IMG/VR virus record: IMGVR_UViG_2740892421_000017
Coordinates: 1 to 13,004 of that record
From: a virus
Lineage: Duplodnaviria > Heunggongvirae > Uroviricota > Caudoviricetes
Direction: 5' to 3' (one strand)
Length of the DNA stretch: 13,004 nt
The notes under the pieces are model-generated. The model was not told the DNA's origin. It saw only the letters and a program-made list of their open reading frames with translations, and searched no databases. Position numbers and translations under genes: made by a program. The number at the start of each line of letters is the position of its first letter. Position 1 is the stretch's first letter. Positions 1 to 13,004 of this stretch are shown here, in pieces.

Positions 1-10
1 TTTAATGCCT

Positions 11-43
11 CTTAAATTAAAAGGCCGCCATGGGATAGCGGCC
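11..43 (-). terminator. Putative rho-independent terminator/attenuator downstream of yehD
   Basis: Inverted repeat ggccgc(23-28)...gcggcc(38-43); on the minus strand it is followed by a T-run (complement of cttaaattaaaa at 11-22). Sits just 3' of the yehD stop (80-82). Confidence 0.4.
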
Positions 44-79
44 ATGTTTATTACCTGGAGAAACTTACAATTTTATTTA

Positions 80-622
80 TTAATCCTGCGCCACACGCAT
101 AACCAGAGAAGATAACACATCACCTGATTGCACTGAGTTATCTGTCAGTTTCAGGTATTTTGCTTTAAACGGAATAGCATATTGACCTTCCGCTGTTTTA
201 TAACTCTCAATGTTAAAAGGTGCAGAAACATCCAGGACATCGCTGTTATCACCTAAATAGAGATAGTAACCCACGGTATCGTTGCTACTGGCTATCGCCT
301 TATCGTTACCGGTTATTTTATCGTTGGTAATCAACGAGAGTTTTACACCAGCAACTTCTTTCGGGCAGCTAATTTTTAACATGCTGCTGGTTACACCGAC
401 TGCATCATCATAGGTAGAATATTTAGCTTTACCTTCAAAGACAGTGGTTGGTACAGTCGGCATATTAATACTTACTGAATCACCACCCGCTTCGAATTTA
501 CACGGAGATTCTGCAATATTCCCCTTAATAGTTAATGTTCCGGTATCAACGTCTGCAGCAAATACTCCAGCGCTCATAAAAAAAGAAGAAAAGACAGCGG
601 CAGCAATAATTGAACGTTTCAT
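80..622 (-). CDS. yehD: Fimbrial-like (type 1 pilin family) subunit, 180 aa, with N-terminal signal peptide
   Basis: ORF 80..622 (-). N-terminus MKRSIIAAAVFSSFFMSAGVFAADV is a typical Sec signal peptide; the rest resembles fimbrial major subunits. Sequence and gene order (yehD-yehE-mrp-metG) match the E. coli K-12 yeh locus as I recall it. Confidence 0.85.
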   Translation of the reverse strand: MKRSIIAAAVFSSFFMSAGVFAADVDTGTLTIKGNIAESPCKFEAGGDSVSINMPTVPTTVFEGKAKYSTYDDAVGVTSSMLKISCPKEVAGVKLSLITNDKITGNDKAIASSNDTVGYYLYLGDNSDVLDVSAPFNIESYKTAEGQYAIPFKAKYLKLTDNSVQSGDVLSSLVMRVAQD

Positions 623-846
623 AATATGTTCCTTAATAAAATTTATTTTTGGTTGTTAAGAGTCTGTATCTCTTGGAAACAAATTTCTCACATCAAAAAA
701 GTTGCCGCAATGTAAACACATTGTTTTATTGATTTAAAACAAATTAACCATTGCAATATAAATACAACAAATATTTAAGAGTATTAACTATTTATCGCAT
801 CTATCAATTAATGTAGATTTATGTAAATGGTATTGTTGATATCAAT
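623..846. promoter_or_regulatory. AT-rich intergenic region upstream of yehD (probable fimbrial operon promoter/regulatory region)
   Basis: About 220 bp of strongly AT-rich sequence directly upstream of the yehD start on the minus strand. No specific -10/-35 assigned. Confidence 0.35.
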
Positions 847-885
847 AAAAAAGCCGAAATCATTTATATAAATGATTTCGGCTTT
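847..885 (-). terminator. Rho-independent terminator downstream of yehE (bidirectional-capable)
   Basis: Perfect 30-bp palindrome gccgaaatcatttatataaatgatttcggc (853-882), flanked by an A-run (847-852, giving a U-run on the minus strand) and ttt (883-885). Confidence 0.6.
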
Positions 886-914
886 CTAAATGCAATTAAA
901 ATCAGGTTGCCAAA

Positions 915-1196
915 TTAATCGTAGCGATTTAACACGATTCGACGTTTGCTATCGCTACCTGCAACAACCACTTCTGTCGTTACACCTTTGACGGGCGAAG
1001 AAAACAGATGACGGGTGTCAACATTATACGTTAACTGACCACAATGCTGTTGAGGTTGACCATTAACCATAGCCATACTGCATGTTGGGGGACTGATCCT
1101 GCCATTAATCGCTAATGTGGCAGTCTCTGAAGAGAACGCGGGAGAAGCCAATCCATAGGCAAGAAAAATAATTCCTGACAGCCAATACTTATTCAT
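915..1196 (-). CDS. yehE: Small secreted protein of unknown function (YehE-like, DUF2574-type), 93 aa
   Basis: ORF 915..1196 (-) begins MNKYWLSGIIFLAYGLASPAFS (signal peptide). Position between yehD and mrp matches E. coli K-12 synteny. Confidence 0.75.
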   Translation of the reverse strand: MNKYWLSGIIFLAYGLASPAFSSETATLAINGRISPPTCSMAMVNGQPQQHCGQLTYNVDTRHLFSSPVKGVTTEVVVAGSDSKRRIVLNRYD

Positions 1197-1384
1197 TGAA
1201 CGTTATCCCTGTAGTAAAGGTTATGCCTGGATAGAATGAGTGCATAACAAACTATAGCTGTACATCCACTACACAGCCACGAAGGATGATAATGAAGCAT
1301 TGCCTGTACGATCAATCGACTTTGTAGAGTTTCGGACGAAGGTCCGCAGAATATTCGCAGTATTAAATAAGTGTTCATTAATGC

Positions 1385-1428
1385 GGCAAAAACAAATACA
1401 CCGCATCAATATAACATCTCTGCGGTGT
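1385..1428 (-). terminator. Rho-independent terminator of mrp (copy 1)
   Basis: Hairpin acaccgca(1398-1405)...tgcggtgt(1421-1428); on the minus strand it is followed by atttgtttttgcc (complement of 1385-1397). Lies about 30 nt 3' of the mrp stop at 1459-1461. Confidence 0.55.
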
Positions 1429-1458
1429 ATGAAGAATAACCAGAATGGTTAATAGGCG

Positions 1459-2568
1459 TTAGACCGCGCGGAAGGAAATCTCGCCTGGAATGACTTCACC
1501 CTGCCAGTAGAGCTGAGCTGCAACGCGGTCAGCCAGCTGGCGGTAGATAGCGGTAAATTCGCTCTCCGGACGGCTGATAACCGTTGGCGTGCCTTTATCG
1601 AGATCCTCACGTAAGGAGATGTGTAACGGCATCTGCCCCAGCAGCTGTGTGTGGTATTTTTCAGCCAGTTTCTCAGCACCACCGGTACCGAAAATCGGTT
1701 CATGGTGACCACAGTTACTGCAAATATGCACACTCATGTTCTCGACAATACCAAGCACCGGAACCTCGACTTTCTCGAACATCACAATGCCTTTTTTCGC
1801 ATCGATCAACGCGATGTCCTGCGGGGTGGTGACCACGACTGCACCAGTTACTGGAATGTTTTGCGCCAGCGTCAATTGAATGTCACCGGTGCCTGGCGGC
1901 ATATCAAGCACCAGATAGTCGAGATCCGGCCACAAGGTTTCCTGCAACATCTGCATTAACGCCTTGCTCGCCATCGGTCCACGCCACACCATCGCATTGT
2001 CGTCAGTGACCAGATAACCAATTGAATTGGTTGCCAGGCCATGAGACATAATCGGTGCCATATGGGTACCGTCCGGCGAAGTTGGACGCTGATTTTCTGC
2101 GCCCAGCATGGTGGGAATTGATGGGCCGTAGATATCGGCGTCCAGAATGCCGACTTTCGCCCCTTCCGCCGCCAGTGCCAGCGCCAGGTTTACCGCCGTG
2201 GAGGATTTACCCACGCCGCCTTTACCGGAACTGACCGCAATGATGTTCTTCACACCATTAATACCCGGCTGATTCTTCACGCGTTTTAAGGTGGCGATAT
2301 TGTGCGACAGTTTCCAGTCGATAGCTTTCGCCCCGGTGATACGCAGCAGTTCGGCGCTACATTGCTCTTTTAACTCTTCAAACGCGCTATGCCAGACGAA
2401 TGGCATAACCAGTTCCACATGCAACGTGTCGTCCATCCAGGCGACATGGTGCAACGCTTTCAGCGTGGTGAGGTTATGCTTCAGGGTTGGGTGCTGAAAA
2501 TTGGCCAGTGTCCCGGCGACCATTGCGCGCAAGGCTTCTGGTGATTTGGCCTGGGATTGTTCGTTCAT
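1459..2568 (-). CDS. mrp: Mrp/ApbC family iron-sulfur cluster carrier ATPase, 369 aa (copy 1)
   Basis: Translation from the MNEQSQAKSPEALRAMVAGT start contains the deviant Walker A/P-loop SSGKGGVGKSS and the CSNCGH cysteine motif, as in E. coli Mrp/ApbC. GGAG Shine-Dalgarno lies upstream of the ATG at 2566-2568. The ORF-track start at 2598 (MVYLYKKGVG...) was rejected as an upstream extension. Confidence 0.95.
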   Translation of the reverse strand: MNEQSQAKSPEALRAMVAGTLANFQHPTLKHNLTTLKALHHVAWMDDTLHVELVMPFVWHSAFEELKEQCSAELLRITGAKAIDWKLSHNIATLKRVKNQPGINGVKNIIAVSSGKGGVGKSSTAVNLALALAAEGAKVGILDADIYGPSIPTMLGAENQRPTSPDGTHMAPIMSHGLATNSIGYLVTDDNAMVWRGPMASKALMQMLQETLWPDLDYLVLDMPPGTGDIQLTLAQNIPVTGAVVVTTPQDIALIDAKKGIVMFEKVEVPVLGIVENMSVHICSNCGHHEPIFGTGGAEKLAEKYHTQLLGQMPLHISLREDLDKGTPTVISRPESEFTAIYRQLADRVAAQLYWQGEVIPGEISFRAV

Positions 2569-2699
2569 CCCGACTCCTTTTTTGTATAAATAAACCATCA
2601 GCTGATAGTTTACCTGAAGAATATAGAGAAGTACTTACTTAACATTTTCCCATTTGGTACTATCTAACCCCTTTTCACTATTAAGAAGTAATGCCTACT
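2569..2699. promoter_or_regulatory. Divergent mrp/metG promoter region (copy 1)
   Basis: 131-bp AT-rich intergenic region between the divergently transcribed mrp and metG starts. Confidence 0.4.
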
Positions 2700-3621
2700 A
2701 TGACTCAAGTCGCGAAGAAAATTCTGGTGACGTGCGCACTGCCGTACGCTAACGGCTCAATCCACCTCGGCCATATGCTGGAGCACATCCAGGCTGATGT
2801 CTGGGTCCGTTACCAGCGAATGCGCGGCCACGAGGTCAACTTCATCTGCGCCGACGATGCCCACGGTACACCGATCATGCTGAAAGCTCAGCAGCTTGGT
2901 ATCACCCCGGAGCAGATGATTGGCGAAATGAGTCAGGAGCATCAGACTGATTTCGCAGGCTTTAACATCAGCTATGACAACTATCACTCGACGCACAGCG
3001 AAGAGAACCGCCAGTTGTCAGAACTTATCTACTCTCGCCTGAAAGAAAACGGTTTTATTAAAAACCGCACCATCTCTCAGCTGTACGATCCGGAAAAAGG
3101 CATGTTCCTGCCGGACCGTTTTGTGAAAGGCACCTGCCCGAAATGTAAATCCCCGGATCAATACGGCGATAACTGCGAAGTCTGCGGCGCGACCTACAGC
3201 CCGACTGAACTGATCGAGCCGAAATCGGTGGTTTCTGGCGCTACGCCGGTAATGCGTGATTCTGAACACTTCTTCTTTGATCTGCCCTCTTTCAGCGAAA
3301 TGTTGCAGGCATGGACCCGCAGCGGTGCGTTGCAGGAGCAGGTGGCAAATAAAATGCAGGAGTGGTTTGAATCTGGCCTGCAACAGTGGGATATCTCCCG
3401 CGACGCCCCTTACTTCGGTTTTGAAATTCCGAACGCGCCGGGCAAATATTTCTACGTCTGGCTGGACGCACCGATTGGCTACATGGGTTCTTTCAAGAAT
3501 CTGTGCGACAAGCGCGGCGACAGCGTAAGCTTCGATGAATACTGGAAGAAAGACTCCACCGCCGAGCTGTACCACTTCATCGGTAAAGATATTGTTTACT
3601 TCCACAGCCTGTTCTGGCCTG
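2700..3621 (+). CDS. metG: Methionyl-tRNA synthetase, 5' fragment (first ~307 codons), cut off by the N-run
   Basis: Translation [31 protein letters not shown]... carries the class I aaRS HIGH-type motif ([11 protein letters not shown]) and is co-linear with the full-length copy at 10747..12780 as far as ...YFHSLFWP. Sequence after the N-run is unrelated to metG. Confidence 0.9.
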
Positions 3622-3631
3622 NNNNNNNNNN
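3622..3631. other. Run of 10 N: assembly gap / scaffold junction
   Basis: Ten consecutive n characters in the sequence; flanking sequence is unrelated on the two sides (metG on the left, unknown ORF on the right). Confidence 0.95.
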
Positions 3632-3997
3632 ATGTTCGCGGGTGAGTTCGTCCGCAGCGGTGCCAAAAACTACCTTGAGCTGGATTACAACGTCCCTGCA
3701 ATTGGCGATTTCGTCGTTACCATCCAACGCAAAGAAGGTAAGACGCCAGGTGAACGCGTCGCAGAGCTTGAGGCCGTTGTGGATCAGCGTAACGGAGAGT
3801 GTGACCGTTTGATCAGCGAGCTTCATGCACTTCGGGAAGAAAGAATATGCGAGGGTAGTAATACACGTAATGCAGCGGATATCTACTTCCAGTTAGTTGA
3901 GGAATGCCAGATTCCACCAGGTGGCTCTCTTGTCGATTACGTCAGACATTTAATGGCGGAAGTTAACTCCAGCCATAAAGATGGTGAGGTGCGCTGA
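3632..3997 (+). CDS. Hypothetical protein, probably 5'-truncated by the gap (at least 121 aa)
   Basis: ORF begins at the first ATG right after the N-run; contains a predicted coiled-coil stretch (ERVAELEAVVDQRNGECDRLISELHALREER). Its stop overlaps the next start (TGATG at 3995-3999). Confidence 0.5.
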   Translation: MFAGEFVRSGAKNYLELDYNVPAIGDFVVTIQRKEGKTPGERVAELEAVVDQRNGECDRLISELHALREERICEGSNTRNAADIYFQLVEECQIPPGGSLVDYVRHLMAEVNSSHKDGEVR

Positions 3998-4377
3998 TGT
4001 TTGGCATTGATGCACAGCGTATAGCCGCTTTTGCAAAAAGTCCTCTTGATAATCCCTTGTCTCGTAGTGAGCAAATGGCACTGGCAAGGCTTTTTCTTCA
4101 CATTCAAAAACAGGCAGACATTTTCAATAACATGCCTAATCAACCTATTCTGGATGGTCACATCCAGATGGTCATTAACAGTCATGAGAAAGGCTGGGCT
4201 GCAATCGTCCCCTGCACAATTACATACAGGTTGGCGAAAGAGGTTCAAGAGTTTCGAAAAGTCAGTGTCGAATCAGAGTCTACCAAAGCCGCAATAAACA
4301 CTCTTATTCGCATGGGGTTCACATGGGACGGTGGAGCTTACTGGCAAGCACCTCAACCCATTTTATCCGGCAATTAG
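3997..4377 (+). CDS. Hypothetical protein, 126 aa
   Basis: ORF 3997..4377, start overlapping the upstream stop; no family recognised by eye. Confidence 0.55.
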   Translation: MFGIDAQRIAAFAKSPLDNPLSRSEQMALARLFLHIQKQADIFNNMPNQPILDGHIQMVINSHEKGWAAIVPCTITYRLAKEVQEFRKVSVESESTKAAINTLIRMGFTWDGGAYWQAPQPILSGN

Positions 4378-4407
4378 GCGCTACAAATCCTTCTGCATGA
4401 ATAAATA

Positions 4408-4428
4408 AAGGCCATAACTTATGGCCTT
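4408..4428. terminator. Putative hairpin/terminator after the 3632-4377 gene pair
   Basis: Inverted repeat aaggccat(4408-4415)...atggcctt(4421-4428) with A/T-rich flanks on both sides. U-tract is imperfect on the plus strand. Confidence 0.3.
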
Positions 4429-4515
4429 AAATAAATTGTTTTCTACCTTTTCTTATTTGTGAAAATAAACCAGCACTTGGTAGTGCTTATGTAACAGCAA
4501 AGAAGAGAAAAACAC

Positions 4516-4971
4516 ATGAGTAACAAAATCGAAAATCCCGTAGTTCTCATTCACAAGCGCGAGAACCACGACTCCTATGCGGTGGCGATCACCAATGGGA
4601 GTCACGATTTTTACGATGGCCTGCTAATGGCCTCAGTGTCGCCTGATGAGGCAGACAACTCTTTTGCCGTCTTCGCTATGGTTGGTTACTACATGGCTGC
4701 CGAAATTGAGAAGTTGCGGGCGCAAAGAGACGCATTAGCGGCGGAGAATGCAGCCCTGAAAGAATCTGAGCGAGCATTCGATGCGATGTGTGCCGAGGAA
4801 CACGGAGATAATTGGGTTAGCGAATTAACGGAGACTCCAGCCACCGATGCTTTTCTGGCTGAAGTACGTGCGCAGGGCGTGGAGATGTTTGCTGAGTGCG
4901 CATACACACTTGAACATCATGATCACGCAGTAGCCTTCGCCGCTGAGCTTCGCAAAGGAAATAAACAGTGA
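4516..4971 (+). CDS. Hypothetical protein with central coiled coil, 151 aa (possibly Ea22-like prophage early protein)
   Basis: ORF with purine-rich region upstream (agaagagaaaaacacATG). Coiled-coil-like segment AAEIEKLRAQRDALAAENAALKESERAF. First gene of a chain of overlapping ORFs. Confidence 0.6.
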   Translation: MSNKIENPVVLIHKRENHDSYAVAITNGSHDFYDGLLMASVSPDEADNSFAVFAMVGYYMAAEIEKLRAQRDALAAENAALKESERAFDAMCAEEHGDNWVSELTETPATDAFLAEVRAQGVEMFAECAYTLEHHDHAVAFAAELRKGNKQ

Positions 4972-5570
4972 ATGAGATTTACTACCTGACGTTACGTGAA
5001 CGTTATTCACCAAAACCAGCGCCTAAATGCTCTGTTTGTGGCGAGGAAATGTCAATACAGCGCATATCTGGAGCACATGTTGTTTATGCCTGTTCCGGTG
5101 AGGGTGATGACGGATATTTTAAGATAGGGCGTACTTTTGCAGACGAACATTATGAAAAATCACGCGTAACAGTAGTTGATGCTAGTGATCCCGATGTGAT
5201 TGCACTGCTGGACGAACTGGATAAAAGACAGCAACACATCCGACGTCTTGAGCAGGAGAACGTAGAGATGGTCCTAACGCTTGAGAAGCTGCGTGTTGAG
5301 CTTGAGGAGACAAAATCAAAACTCAACGAACAGCGTGAATATTACGAAGGTGTTATCTCGGATGGGAGTAAGCGCATAGCAGAGTTAGAAAGTGATTCTC
5401 AGGCACAAAAGTTAGTTGAAGCAATCATTGTTGCGATAGAAAACGAACAGGAACGTCTTTTTGATGAAGATTACCTAATGGATTCGAAAGAATGCATTGA
5501 CGTAATTCGTGAAGAAGTAAAGCGATGGAATGATTCCCGCGCCGCTGGCATTCGCATCAAAGGAGAGTGA
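4968..5570 (+). CDS. Hypothetical protein, 200 aa, GTG start; N-terminal CxxC...H...C motif plus coiled coil
   Basis: GTG start at 4968 overlaps the upstream TGA (GTGA); AAGGAA Shine-Dalgarno 7 nt upstream. Motif [22 protein letters not shown], then a heptad-like region [39 protein letters not shown]. Confidence 0.6.
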
Positions 5571-5571
5571 G

Positions 5572-5895
5572 ATGACCACATCGCATTCTGCAATTACCCA
5601 GGAAAAAGCCTTCCACATACTCGAACGATTAGAGGCGCTTGCTACGGAGGAGGATATATCCCCGGAGAAACTGGTTGAGTTCAGCCGTGTGATATTGCGT
5701 CGCAAGAACGATATGGAGCGGCTGACATCTGGCGCTCCATCCTTATCAGTCAGGCGAACACTTTGTTGCAGCTTCTGCAACAAATCCCAGTACGCCGTCA
5801 AAAAGTTAATTGCTGGGGACGCCGTTTTCATCTGCGACGAGTGTGTGGATGTGTGCAACAGAATTATCCGGGGAGAGAAAGAGGGATCAGCATGA
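5572..5895 (+). CDS. ClpX-type C4 zinc-finger domain protein, 107 aa
   Basis: C-terminal segment [38 protein letters not shown] closely matches the N-terminal zinc-binding domain of E. coli ClpX ([39 protein letters not shown], from memory). Strong GGAG Shine-Dalgarno 6 nt upstream of the ATG at 5572. The ORF-track start at 5530 lies inside the upstream gene and was rejected. Confidence 0.7.
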
Positions 5896-6422
5896 AATTT
5901 TCCAAATTTTCTGAGTTGGTGAATCGTATTTTGTCCAACAACCACAGCCATCGTCGCGATATGGATGTAACGATCGTTGTTCATTCGCCTGGTCGCATCG
6001 GTTCAACACCATCAGTTGAGGTTCAGTCAATTCAGGCGGGTTTTGATTGGGATGCCGGGCAAGTGATGATTTTTCCAGCACAGCCACTGACCACGCTAAC
6101 ACCAGAGCAGGTTGCTGATATCACTGATAGTGTGCGCAAAGGTCAGTCTTGGCACGCGTATCAGGAATACAAGAAGCATAAAGAGCAGTTGGAAAAATTG
6201 TCGATGGAGTTGGAAGGCGCTAAACAGCGGGAAAAAGATCTGTTTATGGAAAATGTTCGACTTAAGTCAGGTATAGCCGGTCTGATACACCTCGGTATTC
6301 GATATGCGGATGTTGAGGTCATGAAAATTGCTGGAGATGCCCAGCTTTCTACTCCATGCACTGACAGCATCATAAACAGCATTGCAGCAGGCATTTTCAC
6401 CAAAGAGGGGGCAGCACGATGA
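5892..6422 (+). CDS. Hypothetical protein with coiled coil, 176 aa
   Basis: ATG at 5892 overlaps the upstream stop (ATGA); GAGGG Shine-Dalgarno upstream. Coiled-coil-like [35 protein letters not shown]. The ORF-track start at 5763 was rejected as an upstream extension. Confidence 0.6.
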
Positions 6423-6604
6423 GAACACTAGAGGTTCGCGCTGAAGACGTAATCCCTGGTGATGTGCTCATAACATCTAAAGGTCAACAATGTGCGGTTA
6501 AATCTTTTTGGATGGAAAATGACAAAGTGACTCTGTTCGGTACGGATGGTTCCGAAACTGATTATGACTACGACGAATTGCTTGTTGTTGAGAGAGCTGC
6601 CTAA
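6419..6604 (+). CDS. Small hypothetical protein, 61 aa
   Basis: ATGA start/stop overlap with the upstream gene and TAATG overlap with the downstream gene; part of the coupled chain. Confidence 0.5.
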   Translation: MRTLEVRAEDVIPGDVLITSKGQQCAVKSFWMENDKVTLFGTDGSETDYDYDELLVVERAA

Positions 6605-7257
6605 TGACCACCGTTAACAATAAGAAATGCTACCCAAGCGAGAAATATCTTAATGAGCTGATCACCAACATTGAGTTTGCTGCAAGAGCACCAGTTGAAG
6701 TCGTGAGAGCGATTGCAGCAGAGCTACAGAAGCACCGTAAGGCCTATGCCAATACAGCCGCATCTAAGGATGGTTGGATAAGCTGTAGTGAGCGAATGCC
6801 TGTAATTGGCGAGCTAAATTGGAGAACTAGTTTTCCTTTACTGGTTACGTGTGAGATCGGCGTTATACCTGCTTATTACGGCTTTGTGAGCGTTAATGGT
6901 GATAGGCATTATGGCTTTATGGAGAGTCTTAAATACGGAGACGCTAACGGCAACCATCCTCAAACTAATGAATATGGTCTGATTAGCAATGTCACACACT
7001 GGATGCCACTACCAGAACGCCGCAGGAGTCGAACAGTGAATAATGCAGAGTTATTTCAGAAAATATCGGCTCTCGCGACTGAATGCCACGCTATAGCATC
7101 TGAGCTTGATGTTGGCGATGAACGAACCGAGATGTTCGAAATATACAGTGTGCTGCGCAATCTCTGTCGGCGTGGCTACGCCACTCAAGTAGGGCGAATG
7201 ACTAACCCACTACTCTCATCCTGTGATGAGGATGACTCGGATGAGGATGACGAATGA
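6604..7257 (+). CDS. DUF551-like phage protein with acidic C-terminal tail, 217 aa
   Basis: Segment DGWISCSERMP...THWMPLPERR resembles the conserved core of the DUF551 family common in lambdoid prophage early regions (from memory). C-terminus is SSCDEDDSDEDDE. Confidence 0.6.
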   Translation: MTTVNNKKCYPSEKYLNELITNIEFAARAPVEVVRAIAAELQKHRKAYANTAASKDGWISCSERMPVIGELNWRTSFPLLVTCEIGVIPAYYGFVSVNGDRHYGFMESLKYGDANGNHPQTNEYGLISNVTHWMPLPERRRSRTVNNAELFQKISALATECHAIASELDVGDERTEMFEIYSVLRNLCRRGYATQVGRMTNPLLSSCDEDDSDEDDE

Positions 7258-7637
7258 TGCATAAATCAGTAGCCGGTGAGTTTCAGAAGGAAGTCGATAA
7301 TACCACTGATCTATTGGACGATATTTTAAGCATTCTCGCGCTGCTTGAGGCTGGCGATTGGTCAGAACATTGCACTAAAACAGAGCTAGGCGGTCGGCTT
7401 GAAAGAGAGATTACACGACTGATTAGCGATGCCCAAAATGATTTGTCACCTGAGCATCTCCCCTGCGATGTAGTTCTTGTGCCAGGGATGAGGATACACG
7501 AAGGCGTCAGAACGAAAACATTATTAACCGCATTACAGAGAAGAGCCGAACTAAGCTCGCGGATAAAGTTGATGCCATCCAAAATATTTGATGTCGTCAA
7601 ATTTACGCCATCGCAACATACTGAGAGAGATAAATGA
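7254..7637 (+). CDS. Hypothetical protein, 127 aa
   Basis: ORF whose start overlaps the upstream stop (ATGATG) and whose stop overlaps the next start (ATGA). Confidence 0.55.
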   Translation: MMHKSVAGEFQKEVDNTTDLLDDILSILALLEAGDWSEHCTKTELGGRLEREITRLISDAQNDLSPEHLPCDVVLVPGMRIHEGVRTKTLLTALQRRAELSSRIKLMPSKIFDVVKFTPSQHTERDK

Positions 7638-8260
7638 GCACGGTAGCGAAAGATCTCACAGAAGATATTCTCAATAAAATTATTGCTGGTGCAAATACCT
7701 CGCTTGAGCAACTTCTTGCGTTAGCACTGAGAGCCGAACGTCGAGACAGAAATCGTTTTTATGAGCGATTACCAGGGAAGCGACCAGATAGATCGGATGA
7801 AGAAGGTTGCGATATAGACTACATGGAGCCTTCAGAGATTTATCAACTTGGTAAAGATGACGGCTGGAACGCTTATCACGATGCTGTGATGAAGTTGGAT
7901 GAAAAAGTTAAACCTCTTTCTCGACCGGTAGATCACGGTTTCCGCGATAACTGCGAATGCTCTAGTTGCCAGACCACGGCCCGTATTTGTTCCGAATTGA
8001 CAGATAAGTCCAGCCTAATCTACGAAGTTAATGTAGGCGGTAATACATGGGTCGAATGCACAAGAGCTGCATACGTAAGAGCAAAAGACAAGGGTGAATT
8101 AACCAGAGTTGTTACCAATCACCCAAATAATGAGCTTAAAGATCACCAGATTCGAGAACTGGTGAACGAGTTGAGAGATATTGCGGTTCAGTACCACGGA
8201 ACGCAGCAATTGCGGGAGAAGATTGCCAGAGCAGTGAACAACTCAGTCCGTAAAAAATAA
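7634..8260 (+). CDS. Hypothetical protein with cysteine cluster (CxCxxC-x6-C), 208 aa
   Basis: Last gene of the coupled chain. Motif DNCECSSCQTTARICSE suggests a small metal-binding knuckle. Followed by a hairpin at 8278-8302. Confidence 0.6.
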   Translation: MSTVAKDLTEDILNKIIAGANTSLEQLLALALRAERRDRNRFYERLPGKRPDRSDEEGCDIDYMEPSEIYQLGKDDGWNAYHDAVMKLDEKVKPLSRPVDHGFRDNCECSSCQTTARICSELTDKSSLIYEVNVGGNTWVECTRAAYVRAKDKGELTRVVTNHPNNELKDHQIRELVNELRDIAVQYHGTQQLREKIARAVNNSVRKK

Positions 8261-8277
8261 GCAATAGTACGATAAAG

Positions 8278-8302
8278 AGGCCCCATGCTCTTGATGGGGC
8301 CT
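8278..8302. terminator. Putative transcription-terminating hairpin after the operon
   Basis: 9-bp stem aggccccat(8278-8286)/atggggcct(8294-8302) with a 7-nt loop. No clear U-tract on the plus strand, so a rho-independent call is tentative. Confidence 0.35.
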
Positions 8303-8369
8303 GTAGCAACTAGCGTTATGGACGCTGGTTTACGTACTCAATGATCGCTTTGATAATCGCGAACATCGG

Positions 8370-8665
8370 CGGCACGATTTTGAACAGTAAGTTAACCATA
8401 ACAGGCCTCACTTAGTTTTATCGCGCCTAGCTGCAAATACCTTTGGGCTTGCCTTTGCAGTTGCAATATCTGTAGTCGCCAGATACTTACGGCACGATTT
8501 CGAGTTAAGGTAAGGTTTTAGAGTCACCAAAAACCTGGACTTAAATCTTCTTTGAGAACAACGATGTTTAGTAAATGGTCATTATTACCTGGTATGACCA
8601 CTCAACCTTTCTTGATGAATCCAGTACATTCGGTTAATCTTAATTCAGTCGCCAGATACTTATGG
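8370..8665. repeat. Mosaic short direct repeats in a noncoding region
   Basis: Repeat Y, agtcgccagatactta[c/t]gg, at 8474-8492 and 8647-8665. Repeat X, cggcacgattt[t/c]ga, at 8370-8383 and 8490-8503. The first Y copy abuts the second X copy (Y+X composite at 8474-8503). Confidence 0.6.
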
Positions 8666-8671
8666 CTCAGG

Positions 8672-8730
8672 AACAGAGCCGCAAACTCTGTTTCCTTTTA
8701 AAAAGCCCAGCCTAGTCAACTGGGCTTTTT
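8672..8730 (+). terminator. Tandem rho-independent terminators (second one bidirectional-capable)
   Basis: Hairpin aacagag(8673-8679)-ccgcaaa-ctctgtt(8687-8693) followed by tccttttaaaaa; then hairpin agcccag(8704-8710)-cctagtcaa-ctgggct(8720-8726) followed by ttttt (8726-8730) and preceded by an A-run. Confidence 0.6.
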
Positions 8731-9025
8731 AATGTCTATTTTTAACCCAACATACCCTCAATACTGCAACATCAGTGTCTTGCGAATTAAGATAGTGTGA
8801 ATAGATTTTTCATGCAAGTGCATAAGCCTGTGGATAACTCAGGAAGGAAAAAGTGACTTCTGCGCACTTTAGACCGGACAAGGCGTTCGAAAAAGTCAAT
8901 GGGAAGAAAAAATTTGTTAAAAATAACGTTTGTTTGAATTGTATATATTTATGCCTTTCAATAGTTAGCATCTTATTAACATCTTTTTTAAGAGATAGAG
9001 TTCAAAAATATATAGCTTCAATATA

Positions 9026-9045
9026 TACTGTATGTGTATACAGTA
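9026..9045. promoter_or_regulatory. LexA (SOS) box overlapping the putative promoter of the UmuD'-like gene
   Basis: TACTGTATGTGTATACAGTA, a palindromic CTGT-N8-ACAG element matching the E. coli LexA consensus TACTGT(AT)4ACAGTA. Plausible -35 ttcaaa (9001-9006) and -10 tatact (9024-9029); box ends 16 nt before the ATG at 9062. Confidence 0.75.
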
Positions 9046-9061
9046 TTAAGAGGCGAGTATT

Positions 9062-9451
9062 ATGGGCTTCCCTTCTCCTGCGGCGGATTATGCTGAGAGC
9101 CGTATTTCTCTTGATCAGCAGATAATTAGACATCCTTCAGCGACCTACTTCATGAGGGCAGCTGATAGTCATCATCGTGAGGGAATATTACAGGGTGCAT
9201 TGCTGGTGGTCGATTCCTCACTTACCCCGGTTGATGGTTCTCTGCTTGTATGCGCTCTGGATGGGGAATATCGCGTAAAAAGATACCGGAAGTACCCACG
9301 TCAGCATCTGGAGGATTTAAGAACCGGTAAGAAGGAAGCATTGCCAAAGGATGACGATGGATGCACGGGCAGCAATGCCGTGTTTGGTGTGATCACTCAC
9401 ATTATCAACGACGCAAGAAGTGGCGAGTTTGATGATTGTCCCGTGATGTAG
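9062..9451 (+). CDS. UmuD'-like protein (peptidase S24 / LexA C-terminal-domain fold), naturally lacking the N-terminal arm, 129 aa
   Basis: Begins [30 protein letters not shown], aligning with E. coli UmuD from Gly25 onward (...VQC/[29 protein letters not shown]...). In-frame TAA at 9047-9049 excludes an N-terminal extension. AAGAGG Shine-Dalgarno at 9048-9053. Ser/Lys dyad region retained but altered (AADSHH, RVKRY). Confidence 0.75.
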   Translation: [129 protein letters not shown]

Positions 9452-9463
9452 GAGAACTGATTA

Positions 9464-9487
9464 GGCGGTGCAATGCACCGCCTTTTT
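9464..9487. terminator. Bidirectional terminator between the convergent UmuD'-like gene and mrp (copy 2)
   Basis: Stem ggcggtg(9464-9470)/caccgcc(9476-9482) with loop caatg, followed by ttttt (9483-9487); immediately adjacent to the mrp stop codon (9489-9491). Confidence 0.6.
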
Positions 9488-9488
9488 A

Positions 9489-10589
9489 TCACACTGCGCG
9501 GAATGCGATTTCGCCAGGTATTACTTCACCTTGCCAATACATTTGGGCAGCAACGCGATCTGCGAGGTCACGATAAATAGCCGTAAATTCACTATCTGGA
9601 CGACTAATAACGGTTGGTGTTCCGTTATCCAGATCTTCACGAAGAGAGATATGAAGTGGCATTTGGCCTAACAACTGCGTGTTGTATTTCTCGGCCAGTT
9701 TCTCTGCGCCACCGGTGCCAAAAATTGGCTCGTGATGACCGCAGTTACTGCAAATATGCACACTCATGTTTTCGACGATACCAAGTACCGGCACTTCGAC
9801 TTTTTCGAACATCACAATGCCTTTCTTCGCATCGATCAGCGCGATGTCTTGCGGCGTAGTTACCACAACAGCACCAGTTACAGGAATGTTCTGCGCCAGC
9901 GTCAACTGAATATCACCAGTGCCCGGCGGCATATCGAGAACAAGATAGTCCAGATCAGGCCACAATGTTTCCTGCAACATCTGCATTAACGCCTTGCTCG
10001 CCATCGGTCCACGCCACACCATTGCATTGTCGTCGGTGACCAGATAACCAATAGAGTTGGTTGCCAGGCCATGAGACATGATAGGTGCCATGTGAGTACC
10101 GTCAGGTGAGGTTGGACGTTGGTTTTCCGCGCCCAGCATGGTTGGAATTGATGGACCATAGATATCGGCATCCAAAATACCAACTTTCGCACCTTCAGCA
10201 GCCAACGCCAGTGCCAGGTTTACCGCCGTGGAGGATTTACCCACGCCGCCCTTGCCTGAGCTGACGGCGATAATGTTCTTAACGCCATTAATGCCTGGTT
10301 GGTTTTTGACGCGCTTAAGCGTGGCAATGTTGTACGACAGCTTCCAGTCAATAGCCTTTGCGCCAGTGATACGGAGCAGATCACCACTACATTGCTCTTT
10401 CAGGTCTTCAAAAGGCTTATTCCACACGAAAGGCATGATTAGTTCGACATGCAGTGTGTCATCCATCAACGCAACATGGTGTAACGCTTTAAGCGTAGTC
10501 AGGTTGTGTTTCAGGGTTGGGTGCTGAAAATTAGCCAGCGTACCGGCTACCATTGCTCTCAGGGCATCCGGCGATTTGGACTCGCTCAT
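9489..10589 (-). CDS. mrp: Mrp/ApbC family iron-sulfur cluster carrier ATPase, 366 aa (copy 2, diverged ortholog)
   Basis: Translation MSESKSPDALRAMVAGT... with P-loop SSGKGGVGKSS and CSNCGH motif; co-linear with copy 1 but with about 20 amino-acid differences. GGAG Shine-Dalgarno upstream. Confidence 0.95.
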   Translation of the reverse strand: MSESKSPDALRAMVAGTLANFQHPTLKHNLTTLKALHHVALMDDTLHVELIMPFVWNKPFEDLKEQCSGDLLRITGAKAIDWKLSYNIATLKRVKNQPGINGVKNIIAVSSGKGGVGKSSTAVNLALALAAEGAKVGILDADIYGPSIPTMLGAENQRPTSPDGTHMAPIMSHGLATNSIGYLVTDDNAMVWRGPMASKALMQMLQETLWPDLDYLVLDMPPGTGDIQLTLAQNIPVTGAVVVTTPQDIALIDAKKGIVMFEKVEVPVLGIVENMSVHICSNCGHHEPIFGTGGAEKLAEKYNTQLLGQMPLHISLREDLDNGTPTVISRPDSEFTAIYRDLADRVAAQMYWQGEVIPGEIAFRAV

Positions 10590-10746
10590 CCCGTCTCCTT
10601 TATTTTAATTTGCGCAATTGTCGCCTTGTAGTGTACTCCAGCTACGACATTTAATCATTTATGAGAAATGCTGTTATCACATGGCAGACATAAGGCCATT
10701 TTGTTACTATCAAGCCCCTTTTCACTACAAAGAAGTAATGCCTACT
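10590..10746. promoter_or_regulatory. Divergent mrp/metG promoter region (copy 2)
   Basis: 157-bp intergenic region between divergent mrp and metG starts; sequence differs from copy 1 except near the metG start. Confidence 0.4.
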
Positions 10747-12780
10747 ATGACCCAAGTCGCGAAGAAAATTCTGGTGACGTGCGCGCTGCCGTACGCTAAC
10801 GGCTCAATCCACCTCGGCCATATGCTGGAGCACATCCAGGCTGATGTCTGGGTTCGTTACCAGCGAATGCGCGGCCACGAGGTTAATTTCATCTGTGCCG
10901 ACGATGCCCACGGTACGCCGATCATGCTGAAAGCACAGCAGCTTGGTATCACACCGGAGCAGATGATTGGCGAAATGAGTCAGGAACACCAGACTGATTT
11001 CGCAGGCTTTAACATCAGCTATGACAACTATCACTCGACGCACAGCGAAGAGAACCGTCAGTTGTCTGAGCTTATCTATACTCGCCTGAAAGAGAACGGT
11101 TTTATTAAAAACCGCACTATCTCTCAGTTGTACGACCCGGAAAAAGGCATGTTCCTGCCGGATCGTTTTGTAAAAGGCACCTGCCCGAAATGTAAAGCGC
11201 CAGATCAATACGGCGATAACTGTGAAGTCTGCGGCGCAACATATAGCCCGACTGAATTGATCGAGCCGAAATCGGTGGTTTCTGGCGCTACCCCGGTAAT
11301 GCGTGATTCCGAACACTTCTTCTTTGATCTGCCTTCTTTCAGCGAAATGTTGCAGGCATGGACCCGCAGCGGCGCGTTGCAGGAGCAGGTGGCGAACAAA
11401 ATGCAGGAATGGTTTGAATCCGGCCTGCAACAGTGGGATATCTCCCGAGATGCGCCCTACTTCGGTTTTGAAATTCCGAACGCGCCGGGCAAATATTTCT
11501 ACGTCTGGCTGGACGCGCCGATTGGCTACATGGGTTCCTTCAAGAATCTGTGCGACAAGCGCGGCGATACCACCAGCTTCGATGAATACTGGAAGAAAGA
11601 CTCCACCGCCGAGCTGTACCACTTCATCGGTAAAGATATTGTTTACTTCCACAGCCTGTTCTGGCCTGCCATGCTGGAAGGCAGCAACTTCCGCAAGCCG
11701 ACCAACCTGTTTGTTCATGGCTATGTGACGGTGAACGGCGCGAAGATGTCCAAGTCTCGCGGCACCTTTATTAAAGCCAGCACCTGGCTGAATCATTTTG
11801 ACGCTGACAGCCTGCGTTACTACTACACTGCGAAACTCTCTTCGCGCATTGATGATATCGATCTCAACCTGGAGGATTTCGTTCAGCGTGTGAATGCCGA
11901 TATCGTGAATAAAGTGGTTAACCTGGCCTCCCGCAACGCAGGCTTTATCAACAAGCGTTTTGACGGTGTGCTGGCAAGCGAGCTGGCTGACCCTGAGCTG
12001 TACAAAACCTTTACCGATGCCGCTGAAGTGATTGGTGAAGCGTGGGAAAGCCGTGAATTTGGTAAAGCAGTGCGCGAAATCATGGCACTGGCTGACCTGG
12101 CTAACCGCTATGTCGACGAGCAGGCTCCGTGGGTAGTCGCAAAACAGGAAGGTCGCGATGCTGACCTGCAGGCGATTTGCTCAATGGGCATCAACCTGTT
12201 CCGCGTGCTGATGACTTACCTGAAGCCGGTACTGCCGAAACTGACCGAGCGTGCAGAAGCCTTCCTCAATACGGAACTGACCTGGGATGGTATCCAGCAA
12301 CCGCTGCTGGACCACAAAGTGAATCCGTTCAAGGCACTGTATAACCGCATCGATATGAAGCAGGTTGAAGCACTGGTGGAAGCGTCTAAAGAAGAAGTGA
12401 AAGCAGCTGCCGCGCCAGTTACTGGCCCACTGGCAGATGATCCGATTCAGGAAACCATCACCTTTGACGACTTCGCCAAAGTTGACCTGCGCGTAGCGCT
12501 GATCGAAAACGCAGAGTTTGTTGAAGGTTCTGACAAACTGCTGCGCCTGACACTGGATCTCGGCGGTGAAAAACGCAATGTCTTCTCCGGTATTCGTTCT
12601 GCCTACCCGGATCCGCAGGCACTGATTGGTCGTCACACCATTATGGTGGCTAACCTGGCACCACGTAAAATGCGCTTTGGAATCTCCGAAGGCATGGTGA
12701 TGGCTGCCGGTCCAGGCGGGAAAGATATCTTCCTGCTAAGCCCGGATGCTGGTGCTAAACCGGGTCATCAGGTGAAATAA
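10747..12780 (+). CDS. metG: Methionyl-tRNA synthetase, complete, 677 aa
   Basis: Translation from [26 protein letters not shown] contains the HIGH-type motif and KMSKS (GAKMSKSRG) and ends ...[10 protein letters not shown], matching E. coli MetG length and sequence as I recall it. The ORF-track start at 10618 is an upstream extension and was rejected. Confidence 0.95.
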
Positions 12781-12790
12781 TCCCCCTTCA

Positions 12791-12819
12791 AGGCGCTGCA
12801 TCGACAGCGCCTTTTCTTT
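12791..12819 (+). terminator. Rho-independent terminator of metG
   Basis: Stem aggcgctg(12791-12798)/cagcgcct(12805-12812) with loop catcga, followed by tttcttt (12813-12819). Confidence 0.7.
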
Positions 12820-12920
12820 ATAAATTCCTAAAGTTGTTTTCTTGCGATTTTGTCTCTCTCTAACCCGCATAAATACTGGTAGCATCTGCATTCAACTGGA
12901 TAAAATTACAGGGATGCAGA

Positions 12921-13004
12921 ATGAGACACTTTATCTATCAGGACGAAAAATCACATAAATTCTGGGCGGTGGAGCAACAGGGAAACGAGTTGCATATCAG
13001 TTGG
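12921..13004 (+). CDS. molR: WGR-domain protein (MolR-like), first 28 codons only; continues past window end
   Basis: ATG at 12921; translation MRHFIYQDEKSHKFWAVEQQGNELHISW resembles the N-terminus of the E. coli gene downstream of metG (molR/yehH region), from memory. Confidence 0.55.
   Translation, partial: MRHFIYQDEKSHKFWAVEQQGNELHISW

Follow-up and report, generated by a model that had tools for sequence, protein, structure and literature searches.

A ten-base N-run in an Escherichia coli draft contig as the probable mark of a misassembled phage-plasmid segment within metG

The stretch of DNA analysed here carries the mrp-metG locus twice, and one of the two copies is interrupted by a run of Ns. 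This raises the question of which replicon each copy belongs to and whether the two are physically linked. We refer to the whole stretch of 13,004 nucleotides as the window; its sole N-run is exactly 10 bases long and lies at 3622-3631. The first-pass annotation, made from the letters alone, had reported this run, a metG reading frame cut after ...LFWP on its left and a sequence unrelated to metG on its right, and all three are seen in the sequence. It had proposed a scaffold junction or chimeric assembly, with contigs of different strains or species, or contamination or mixing of the sample, among the probable causes.

Replicon origin of the segments around the N-run

The whole window, Ns included, is contained in JRGB01000152.1 (GCA_000754865.1, 48,077 bp). 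The window ends 2 bases short of the end of that record, which falls at 13006 in window coordinates. Since the Ns are found in the NCBI record, they belong to the deposited draft assembly, in which they join segments from different replicons. That they are instead a mask laid by a data pipeline over real bases, hiding a true contiguous junction, is extremely improbable. A few stretches are masked as Ns in one sequence collection, but the same 10 Ns stand in the independently retrieved NCBI record, the gene call on that record runs across them, their position is exactly that of a graph-node end within the longest repeat (described below), and ten bases is by general convention a minimal gap length. 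We found no paper for the JRGB or GCA_000754865 accession.

The segment to the left of the Ns is a chromosomal contig (CL). Many finished E. coli chromosomes match it at 100% identity from end to end, and the annotation of the E. coli chromosome gives its genes. The features up to and across the Ns are:

1-3621, no strand assigned: chromosomal contig CL
80-622, minus strand: yehD
915-1196, minus strand: yehE
1459-2568, minus strand: chromosomal apbC/mrp
2700-3621, plus strand: 5' part of metG, cut after codon 307 (...LFWP)
3528-3621, plus strand: first 94 bases of a 143-bp repeat (R), at the end of the chromosomal contig; these 94 bases are the longest exact match of the two copies
3622-3631, no strand assigned: 10 N, present in the public record; scaffold gap placeholder between the chromosomal contig and the plasmid-derived block
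2700-3812, plus strand: artefactual fusion ORF of 370 aa, found in the ORF list and as a gene call on the public record

The left metG opens at 2700, and its translation ends in ...HSLFWP at 3620, with one base of a further codon at 3621. In the 370-aa ORF, residues 1-307 of chromosomal MetG are followed by XXXX and by part of a plasmid gene translated out of frame. The ORF is annotated as a gene on the public record (L006 8704-9816), where it runs across the Ns and is without a Pfam family. The protein read through the Ns is bogus.

The sequence to the right of the Ns is not metG. It begins in the interior of a 234-aa plasmid gene, from codon 114 and without foreign bases, and the ATG at 3632 encodes a methionine within that gene and does not start it. 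The block that follows (PL) is recognized by its identity to plasmid contigs and circular plasmids, and some of its genes have Pfam matches:

3632-11574, no strand assigned: plasmid-specific block PL, predicted to come from an SSU5-related phage-plasmid
3632-3997, plus strand: 3' part of the 234-aa gene
3997-4377, plus strand: small phage-type accessory gene
4516-4971, plus strand: small phage-type accessory gene
4968-5570, plus strand: Ead/Ea22 gene (Pfam)
5572-5895, plus strand: ClpX-type zinc finger gene (Pfam)
5892-6422, plus strand: small phage-type accessory gene
6419-6604, plus strand: small phage-type accessory gene
6604-7257, plus strand: DUF551 gene (Pfam)
7254-7637, plus strand: small phage-type accessory gene
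7634-8260, plus strand: small phage-type accessory gene (208 aa)
8261-9061, no strand assigned: AT-rich non-coding gap (GC 0.36 over 8501-9000)
9062-9451, plus strand: S24/UmuD-like peptidase gene, 129 aa (Pfam)
9489-10589, minus strand: plasmid-borne apbC/mrp paralogue, 366 aa, 95% amino-acid identity to chromosomal ApbC
10747-11574, plus strand: plasmid-type part of metG

Three independent plasmid contigs (L002, L003 and L004; ~107 kb) match 3632-11717 of the window at 100% identity. Circular E. coli plasmids of 100-120 kb, which carry their own apbC and metG, match the window from 3632 onward at 97-99% identity. In PLSDB, 62 plasmids cover at least 80% of 3632-11668, and the near-identical ones include S. 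sonnei records. The best PLSDB match is pA16EC0554-1, a circular, non-mobilizable IncFIB plasmid of 107,076 bp. The DNA of the block has also been deposited, at 97-99% identity, in 'Escherichia phage' records of ~108 kb (CMS-2020a, PhiR41_1 and Cyrano). A sister plasmid with the same apbC-metG module (L020) matches SSU5 (JQ965645) downstream of metG, at 14500-22034 of its locus, with 73% identity over 75% of 7.5 kb in 7 colinear pieces. Based on the phage records and this colinear alignment, we predict that the element in the window is an SSU5-related phage-plasmid of ~107 kb.

Some features of the block are of interest in their own right. Between the 208-aa gene and the S24 peptidase gene is a non-coding stretch of ~800 bp (8261-9061), AT-rich in its second half. 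Sister plasmids have cargo at this position, an ISL3 transposase in one (L023) and a type I restriction-modification system with a DNA polymerase III theta-like gene in two others (L017 and L018), and it looks like an insertion hotspot. Scans of the window for tRNA genes and Rfam families found no attachment site or RNA gene near the junction or in 8261-9061. The UmuD/HumD-like S24 peptidase gene at 9062-9451 stands alone, with no umuC partner in the window. It resembles humD of phages P1 and SJ46, which are ~83-85% identical to parts of 4405-9450.

Finished genomes separate the two sides of the Ns. The adjacency of the left and right flanks (3621 next to 3632) occurs in 0 of 5,426 finished E. 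coli genomes, and a scan of species-representative genomes for the exact 3621/3632 junction, with N as a wildcard, gave no match. With flanks that come from different replicons and a junction seen in none of these finished genomes, the proposal of a scaffold junction or misassembled join holds. The DNA just right of the Ns (3632-4500) was found 187 times in 185 finished genomes, every time on a plasmid and never on a chromosome, and the 185 carriers are E. coli that also have the chromosomal apbC-metG copy.

These counts bear directly on the idea that the diverged apbC-metG pair came from the chromosome of a second organism, through a mixed or contaminated sample or through contigs of two strains or species being joined. 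The two copies are 86% identical, which is within the range between enterobacterial species, and a second, plasmid-bearing strain is conceivable as a source. The diverged copy, however, sits among plasmid genes and is itself a 100% match to plasmid contigs, each of the 187 finished-genome occurrences of the neighbouring DNA is on a plasmid of an E. coli with the chromosomal copy as well, and 1-3621 and 11669-13004 both fit one chromosome exactly. The diverged copy is that of the phage-plasmid. Such a phage-plasmid is normally co-resident with an E. coli chromosome, and therefore one isolate explains both copies and no second organism is needed. We regard contamination or a mixture as very unlikely here, and this part of the first-pass annotation is not supported.

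The downstream metG and its hidden switch point

The second pair, apbC (mrp) at 9489-10589 on the minus strand and metG at 10747-12780 on the plus strand, lies 6 kb downstream of the Ns. Where the copies can be aligned (1463-3621 against 9493-11668) they are 86.1% identical over 2,185 columns. This overall identity and the plasmid-specific DNA between the copies rule out a recent tandem or segmental duplication, in agreement with the earlier view that the copies are clearly diverged and such a duplication unlikely.

The divergence is uneven. The MetG proteins are 99.0% identical (7 differences) and their genes 91-99% identical at the DNA level, and the ApbC proteins are 95% identical. The intergenic region between apbC and metG, which contains the promoter (10590-10746 against 2569-2699), is only ~57-63% identical and has indels. 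Given this divergent promoter region, the plasmid metG probably has its own regulation.

Two references were set against the right-hand locus: plasmid contig L002 and the chromosome of FORC 064 (L013), which matches the left flank perfectly. The features at the right end of the window are:

10747-12780, plus strand: hybrid metG, 677 aa; codons 1-276 are plasmid-type, and the gene is chromosome-type from its nt 972 onward
11575-11717, plus strand: repeat R, 143 bp identical in chromosomal and plasmid metG, and the switch point, from the exact identities to L002 and FORC 064
11718-13004, no strand assigned: chromosomal sequence (CR) with an exact FORC 064 match, comprising the 3' part of metG, the intergenic region and the first 28 codons of a DUF4132 gene (12921-13004)

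The window is identical to the plasmid over 3632-11717 and to the FORC 064 chromosome over 11575-13004, and the two identities overlap in R. There are 255 informative sites. The first 49 (to 11574) are all plasmid-type and the other 206 (from 11718) are all chromosome-type, with 0 exceptions. There are 0 mismatches between the FORC 064 chromosome and the window after 11668. The window closes with 224 bases of chromosomal DNA that lie downstream of metG, and beyond ~12700 it is unalignable to the plasmids. The protein has the same pattern: of the 7 amino-acid differences between plasmid and chromosomal MetG, the hybrid has the plasmid residue at 112, 151, 275 and 276 and the chromosomal residue at 417, 442 and 522 (PPPPCCC).

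This pattern of sites, 49 plasmid-type and then 206 chromosome-type, indicates that the 'complete' second metG is a chimera with a plasmid 5' part and a chromosomal 3' part, evidently a hybrid made in assembly. The second mrp-metG pair reported earlier is thus present, but its metG is complete only as this plasmid/chromosome chimera. The exact hybrid protein is found on 7 contigs, compared with 993 for the pure plasmid allele. The hybrid metG region is found at 99% identity or more in 0 complete genomes; the best matches, at 98.3-98.7%, are all plasmids.

Break geometry and the paths that could have produced it

The two breakpoints, at the Ns and inside the second metG, coincide with the same repeat. 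The longest exact match between the copies is 94 bp (3528-3621 = 11575-11668). The chromosomal contig, which runs to 3621, and the plasmid block, which runs to 11668, end at the same offset, 94 bases into R. When the piece from 3622 to 11668 (the 10 Ns and 8,037 bp of plasmid DNA) is removed, the remaining 1-3621 and 11669-13004 join into 4,957 bases that match the FORC 064 chromosome exactly.

The contig end at 3621 suggests a de Bruijn assembly with k=95: the last chromosome-specific base is 3527, which would make 3527-3621 the terminal k-mer. Equal stop offsets are also what we would expect if, at k=95, two nodes led into a single node formed by collapse of the repeat. Gaps of <10 bp are said in the Velvet manual to be written as 10 Ns, which would fit k=95 and a 10-N placeholder.

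We consider it very likely that the join is an artefact, in which the collapse of a repeat and a scaffold join stitched a piece of a free phage-plasmid into chromosomal metG. The isolate would have a normal chromosomal yehE-apbC-metG locus and, as an extrachromosomal element, a ~107 kb SSU5-related phage-plasmid with its own apbC-metG. A short-read de Bruijn assembler (k=95) would collapse R into one node with two entries, CL and PL, and two exits, CR and the plasmid sequence to the right (PR). A path threaded from PL through R to CR would give a chimeric contig of 9.4 kb and leave CL stranded 94 bases into R. The scaffolder may then have set the chimeric contig behind CL, either on read pairs of CL with mates in CR or by reference-based ordering, and written the impossible (negative) gap as a minimal placeholder of 10 Ns. 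In the cell, base 3621 would be followed directly by 11669, and 3632-11668 would belong on the plasmid. The value of k, the order of the assembler steps and the free state of the plasmid in the isolate are the parts of this account that we infer.

Collapsed-repeat misassembly is a known kind of error, and the locus has the same signs: a contig end k-1 bases into an exact repeat longer than k, a wrong exit, a minimal N-run, and colinearity that is restored when the block is removed. It differs in its repeat, which is not an IS element or rRNA operon but a 143-bp island of identity in a chromosomal and a phage-plasmid copy of a housekeeping gene that elsewhere diverge by 4-14%. In other drafts, plasmid contigs often end inside the plasmid metG (L007 and L009).

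The break at 3632 is inside the 234-aa gene, and the record ends 86 bases into the DUF4132 gene. A search of the plasmid and chromosome loci found no repeats that explain the start of the plasmid block at 3632 or the record end at 13006. Low coverage or a variant branch is possible behind both.

A real integration was weighed against misassembly. If the plasmid had entered the chromosome by Campbell-type homologous recombination in R, the true order would be CL-R-PR, the plasmid of ~100 kb, and then PL-R-CR, with the Ns standing for most of the plasmid. The right junction (plasmid apbC and metG 5' part, R, chromosomal metG 3' part, DUF4132) is exactly as predicted for such an event. Other drafts have the same join on long contigs, where the upstream plasmid part is ~107-121 kb, about one plasmid length (L014, L016 and L017), and the ~2 kb shared at 86-96% identity, including the 143-bp identical block, would be enough for RecA-mediated recombination. 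The reciprocal junction CL-R-PR is absent, however, and CL is joined to plasmid DNA 8 kb upstream of R. In an integrant, a scaffolder using read pairs would link CL to PR and not to the contig bearing CR. A collapsed repeat yields the same graph with or without integration, and the join alone is no proof of it. Plasmid-specific DNA is on 0 chromosomes in the 185 finished carriers, a count compatible with an integration rate of about 1%, and no finished genome has the hybrid region at 99% identity or more. The record thus has one junction of the right form for a Campbell-type integration (PL-R-CR), but the reciprocal one is absent and the element is extrachromosomal in all finished genomes examined. 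We consider integration unlikely in this isolate.

Two related candidates were tried and rejected. The reciprocal hybrid MetG, with a chromosomal N-terminus and a plasmid C-terminus, is of no use as a marker of integration: it equals a common natural chromosomal allele found on >1,000 contigs and 5-Mb records. An integrative element that carries a replacement gene end was rejected on the absence of an integrase or att structure and on the finding of a plasmid in all finished genomes.

A smaller real event is still less likely than integration of the whole plasmid. An 8-kb plasmid fragment (3632-11668) might lie inside chromosomal metG, for example after integration and deletion, with the Ns hiding a short junction. 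The scaffold geometry fits, with CL and CR flanking the fragment in the same orientation and a small nominal gap, and a contig from another draft (L021) starts with only ~10.7 kb of plasmid before it switches to the chromosome. An illegitimate junction would, however, create unique k-mers, and the right contig should then extend leftward through the junction to reach the end part of R, but it has a clean start within a plasmid gene. The stop of CL at an offset of k-1 in R points to an unresolved graph branch and not to a biological end, and the arrangement is found in 0 of the 5,426 finished genomes. This insertion is highly improbable, and misassembly of a free plasmid is the reading we prefer.

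Known phage-plasmids and similar switches in other drafts

A metG on a phage-plasmid has been published. A passage of PMC12452169 cites it for pWPMR2 of Shigella sonnei (Tam et al., medRxiv 10.1101/2024.10.27.24316207), and bioRxiv 10.1101/2025.09.12.675607 places the metG-bearing element in the SSU5 supergroup. The two sources report the family from S. sonnei and from E. coli of CC131, CC23 and CC73. By that description, pWPMR2 and the SSU5 supergroup are like the element in the window in that an SSU5-type phage-plasmid of Escherichia/Shigella bears an additional gene for methionine-tRNA ligase. Unlike in pWPMR2, the plasmid metG in the window is only a 5' fragment that assembly has fused to chromosomal sequence. 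In all relatives that we saw, a plasmid apbC adjoins metG.

The pECOH89/AnCo-type phage-like plasmids are non-conjugative, ~108-112 kb in size and strongly homologous to SSU5 (PMC3999498, PMC5427194); the pECOH89 type was described in 2014 (PMC3999498). We liken the element to them by SSU5 relatedness. The matches to the window include plasmids of 110,949 bp with ISEcp1-blaCTX-M-15 near apbC-metG, but in contrast to the pECOH89 type there is no resistance gene in the window.

Switches like the one in the second metG occur in other drafts. Six contigs of 53-427 kb (L014, L016, L017, L018, L021 and L023) have phage-plasmid genes upstream of metG and chromosomal DUF4132 genes downstream, with metG at 10001-12034 of each locus. 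In four of them the change from plasmid to chromosome is at R (L014, 380 kb; L016, 427 kb; L017, 217 kb; and L018). In the other two it is somewhere within metG (L021, 317 kb, with 10.7 kb of plasmid at its start, and L023, 363 kb). Two further loci have a double switch in metG (10001-12034): L015 has a chromosome-type patch at ~nt 1143-1570 in a plasmid context, and L028, a metagenome scaffold, has a plasmid-type patch at ~nt 324-1400 with chromosomal context on both sides. These two mosaics could be gene conversion or flips of the assembler path. Recurrent switches are expected from path flips between sequences that are 93-96% identical and have islands of identity, and equally from rare real recombination. 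Contigs break or switch path repeatedly inside metG because of the 143-bp identical island.

The alternative for the whole group is that SSU5-type phage-plasmids do recombine with the chromosome at metG, by occasional Campbell-type integration or by gene conversion through the 143-bp island, and that the present record and the eight loci just described (L014, L016, L017, L018, L021, L023, L015 and L028) are true recombinants. We give this a slim chance. If true, an essential housekeeping gene would be exchanging sequence with its phage-plasmid copy, which has been linked to antimicrobial survival.

There are consequences for users of the public record. The bogus 370-aa ORF is in it, and the hybrid MetG has entered public protein databases as an entry of its own (the 7 contigs above); both should be disregarded. 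Scans of draft genomes for an extra metG, for carriage of phage-plasmids or for 'integrated' phage-plasmids can be misled. The warning of the first-pass annotation that inference across 3622-3631 is unsafe is borne out, as this is a scaffold join of chromosome and plasmid. The second breakpoint, at 11575-11717, which that annotation missed, is equally unsafe to cross. [quoted passage not shown] One isolate with such a phage-plasmid suffices to account for two diverged apbC-metG loci, and contamination is unnecessary.
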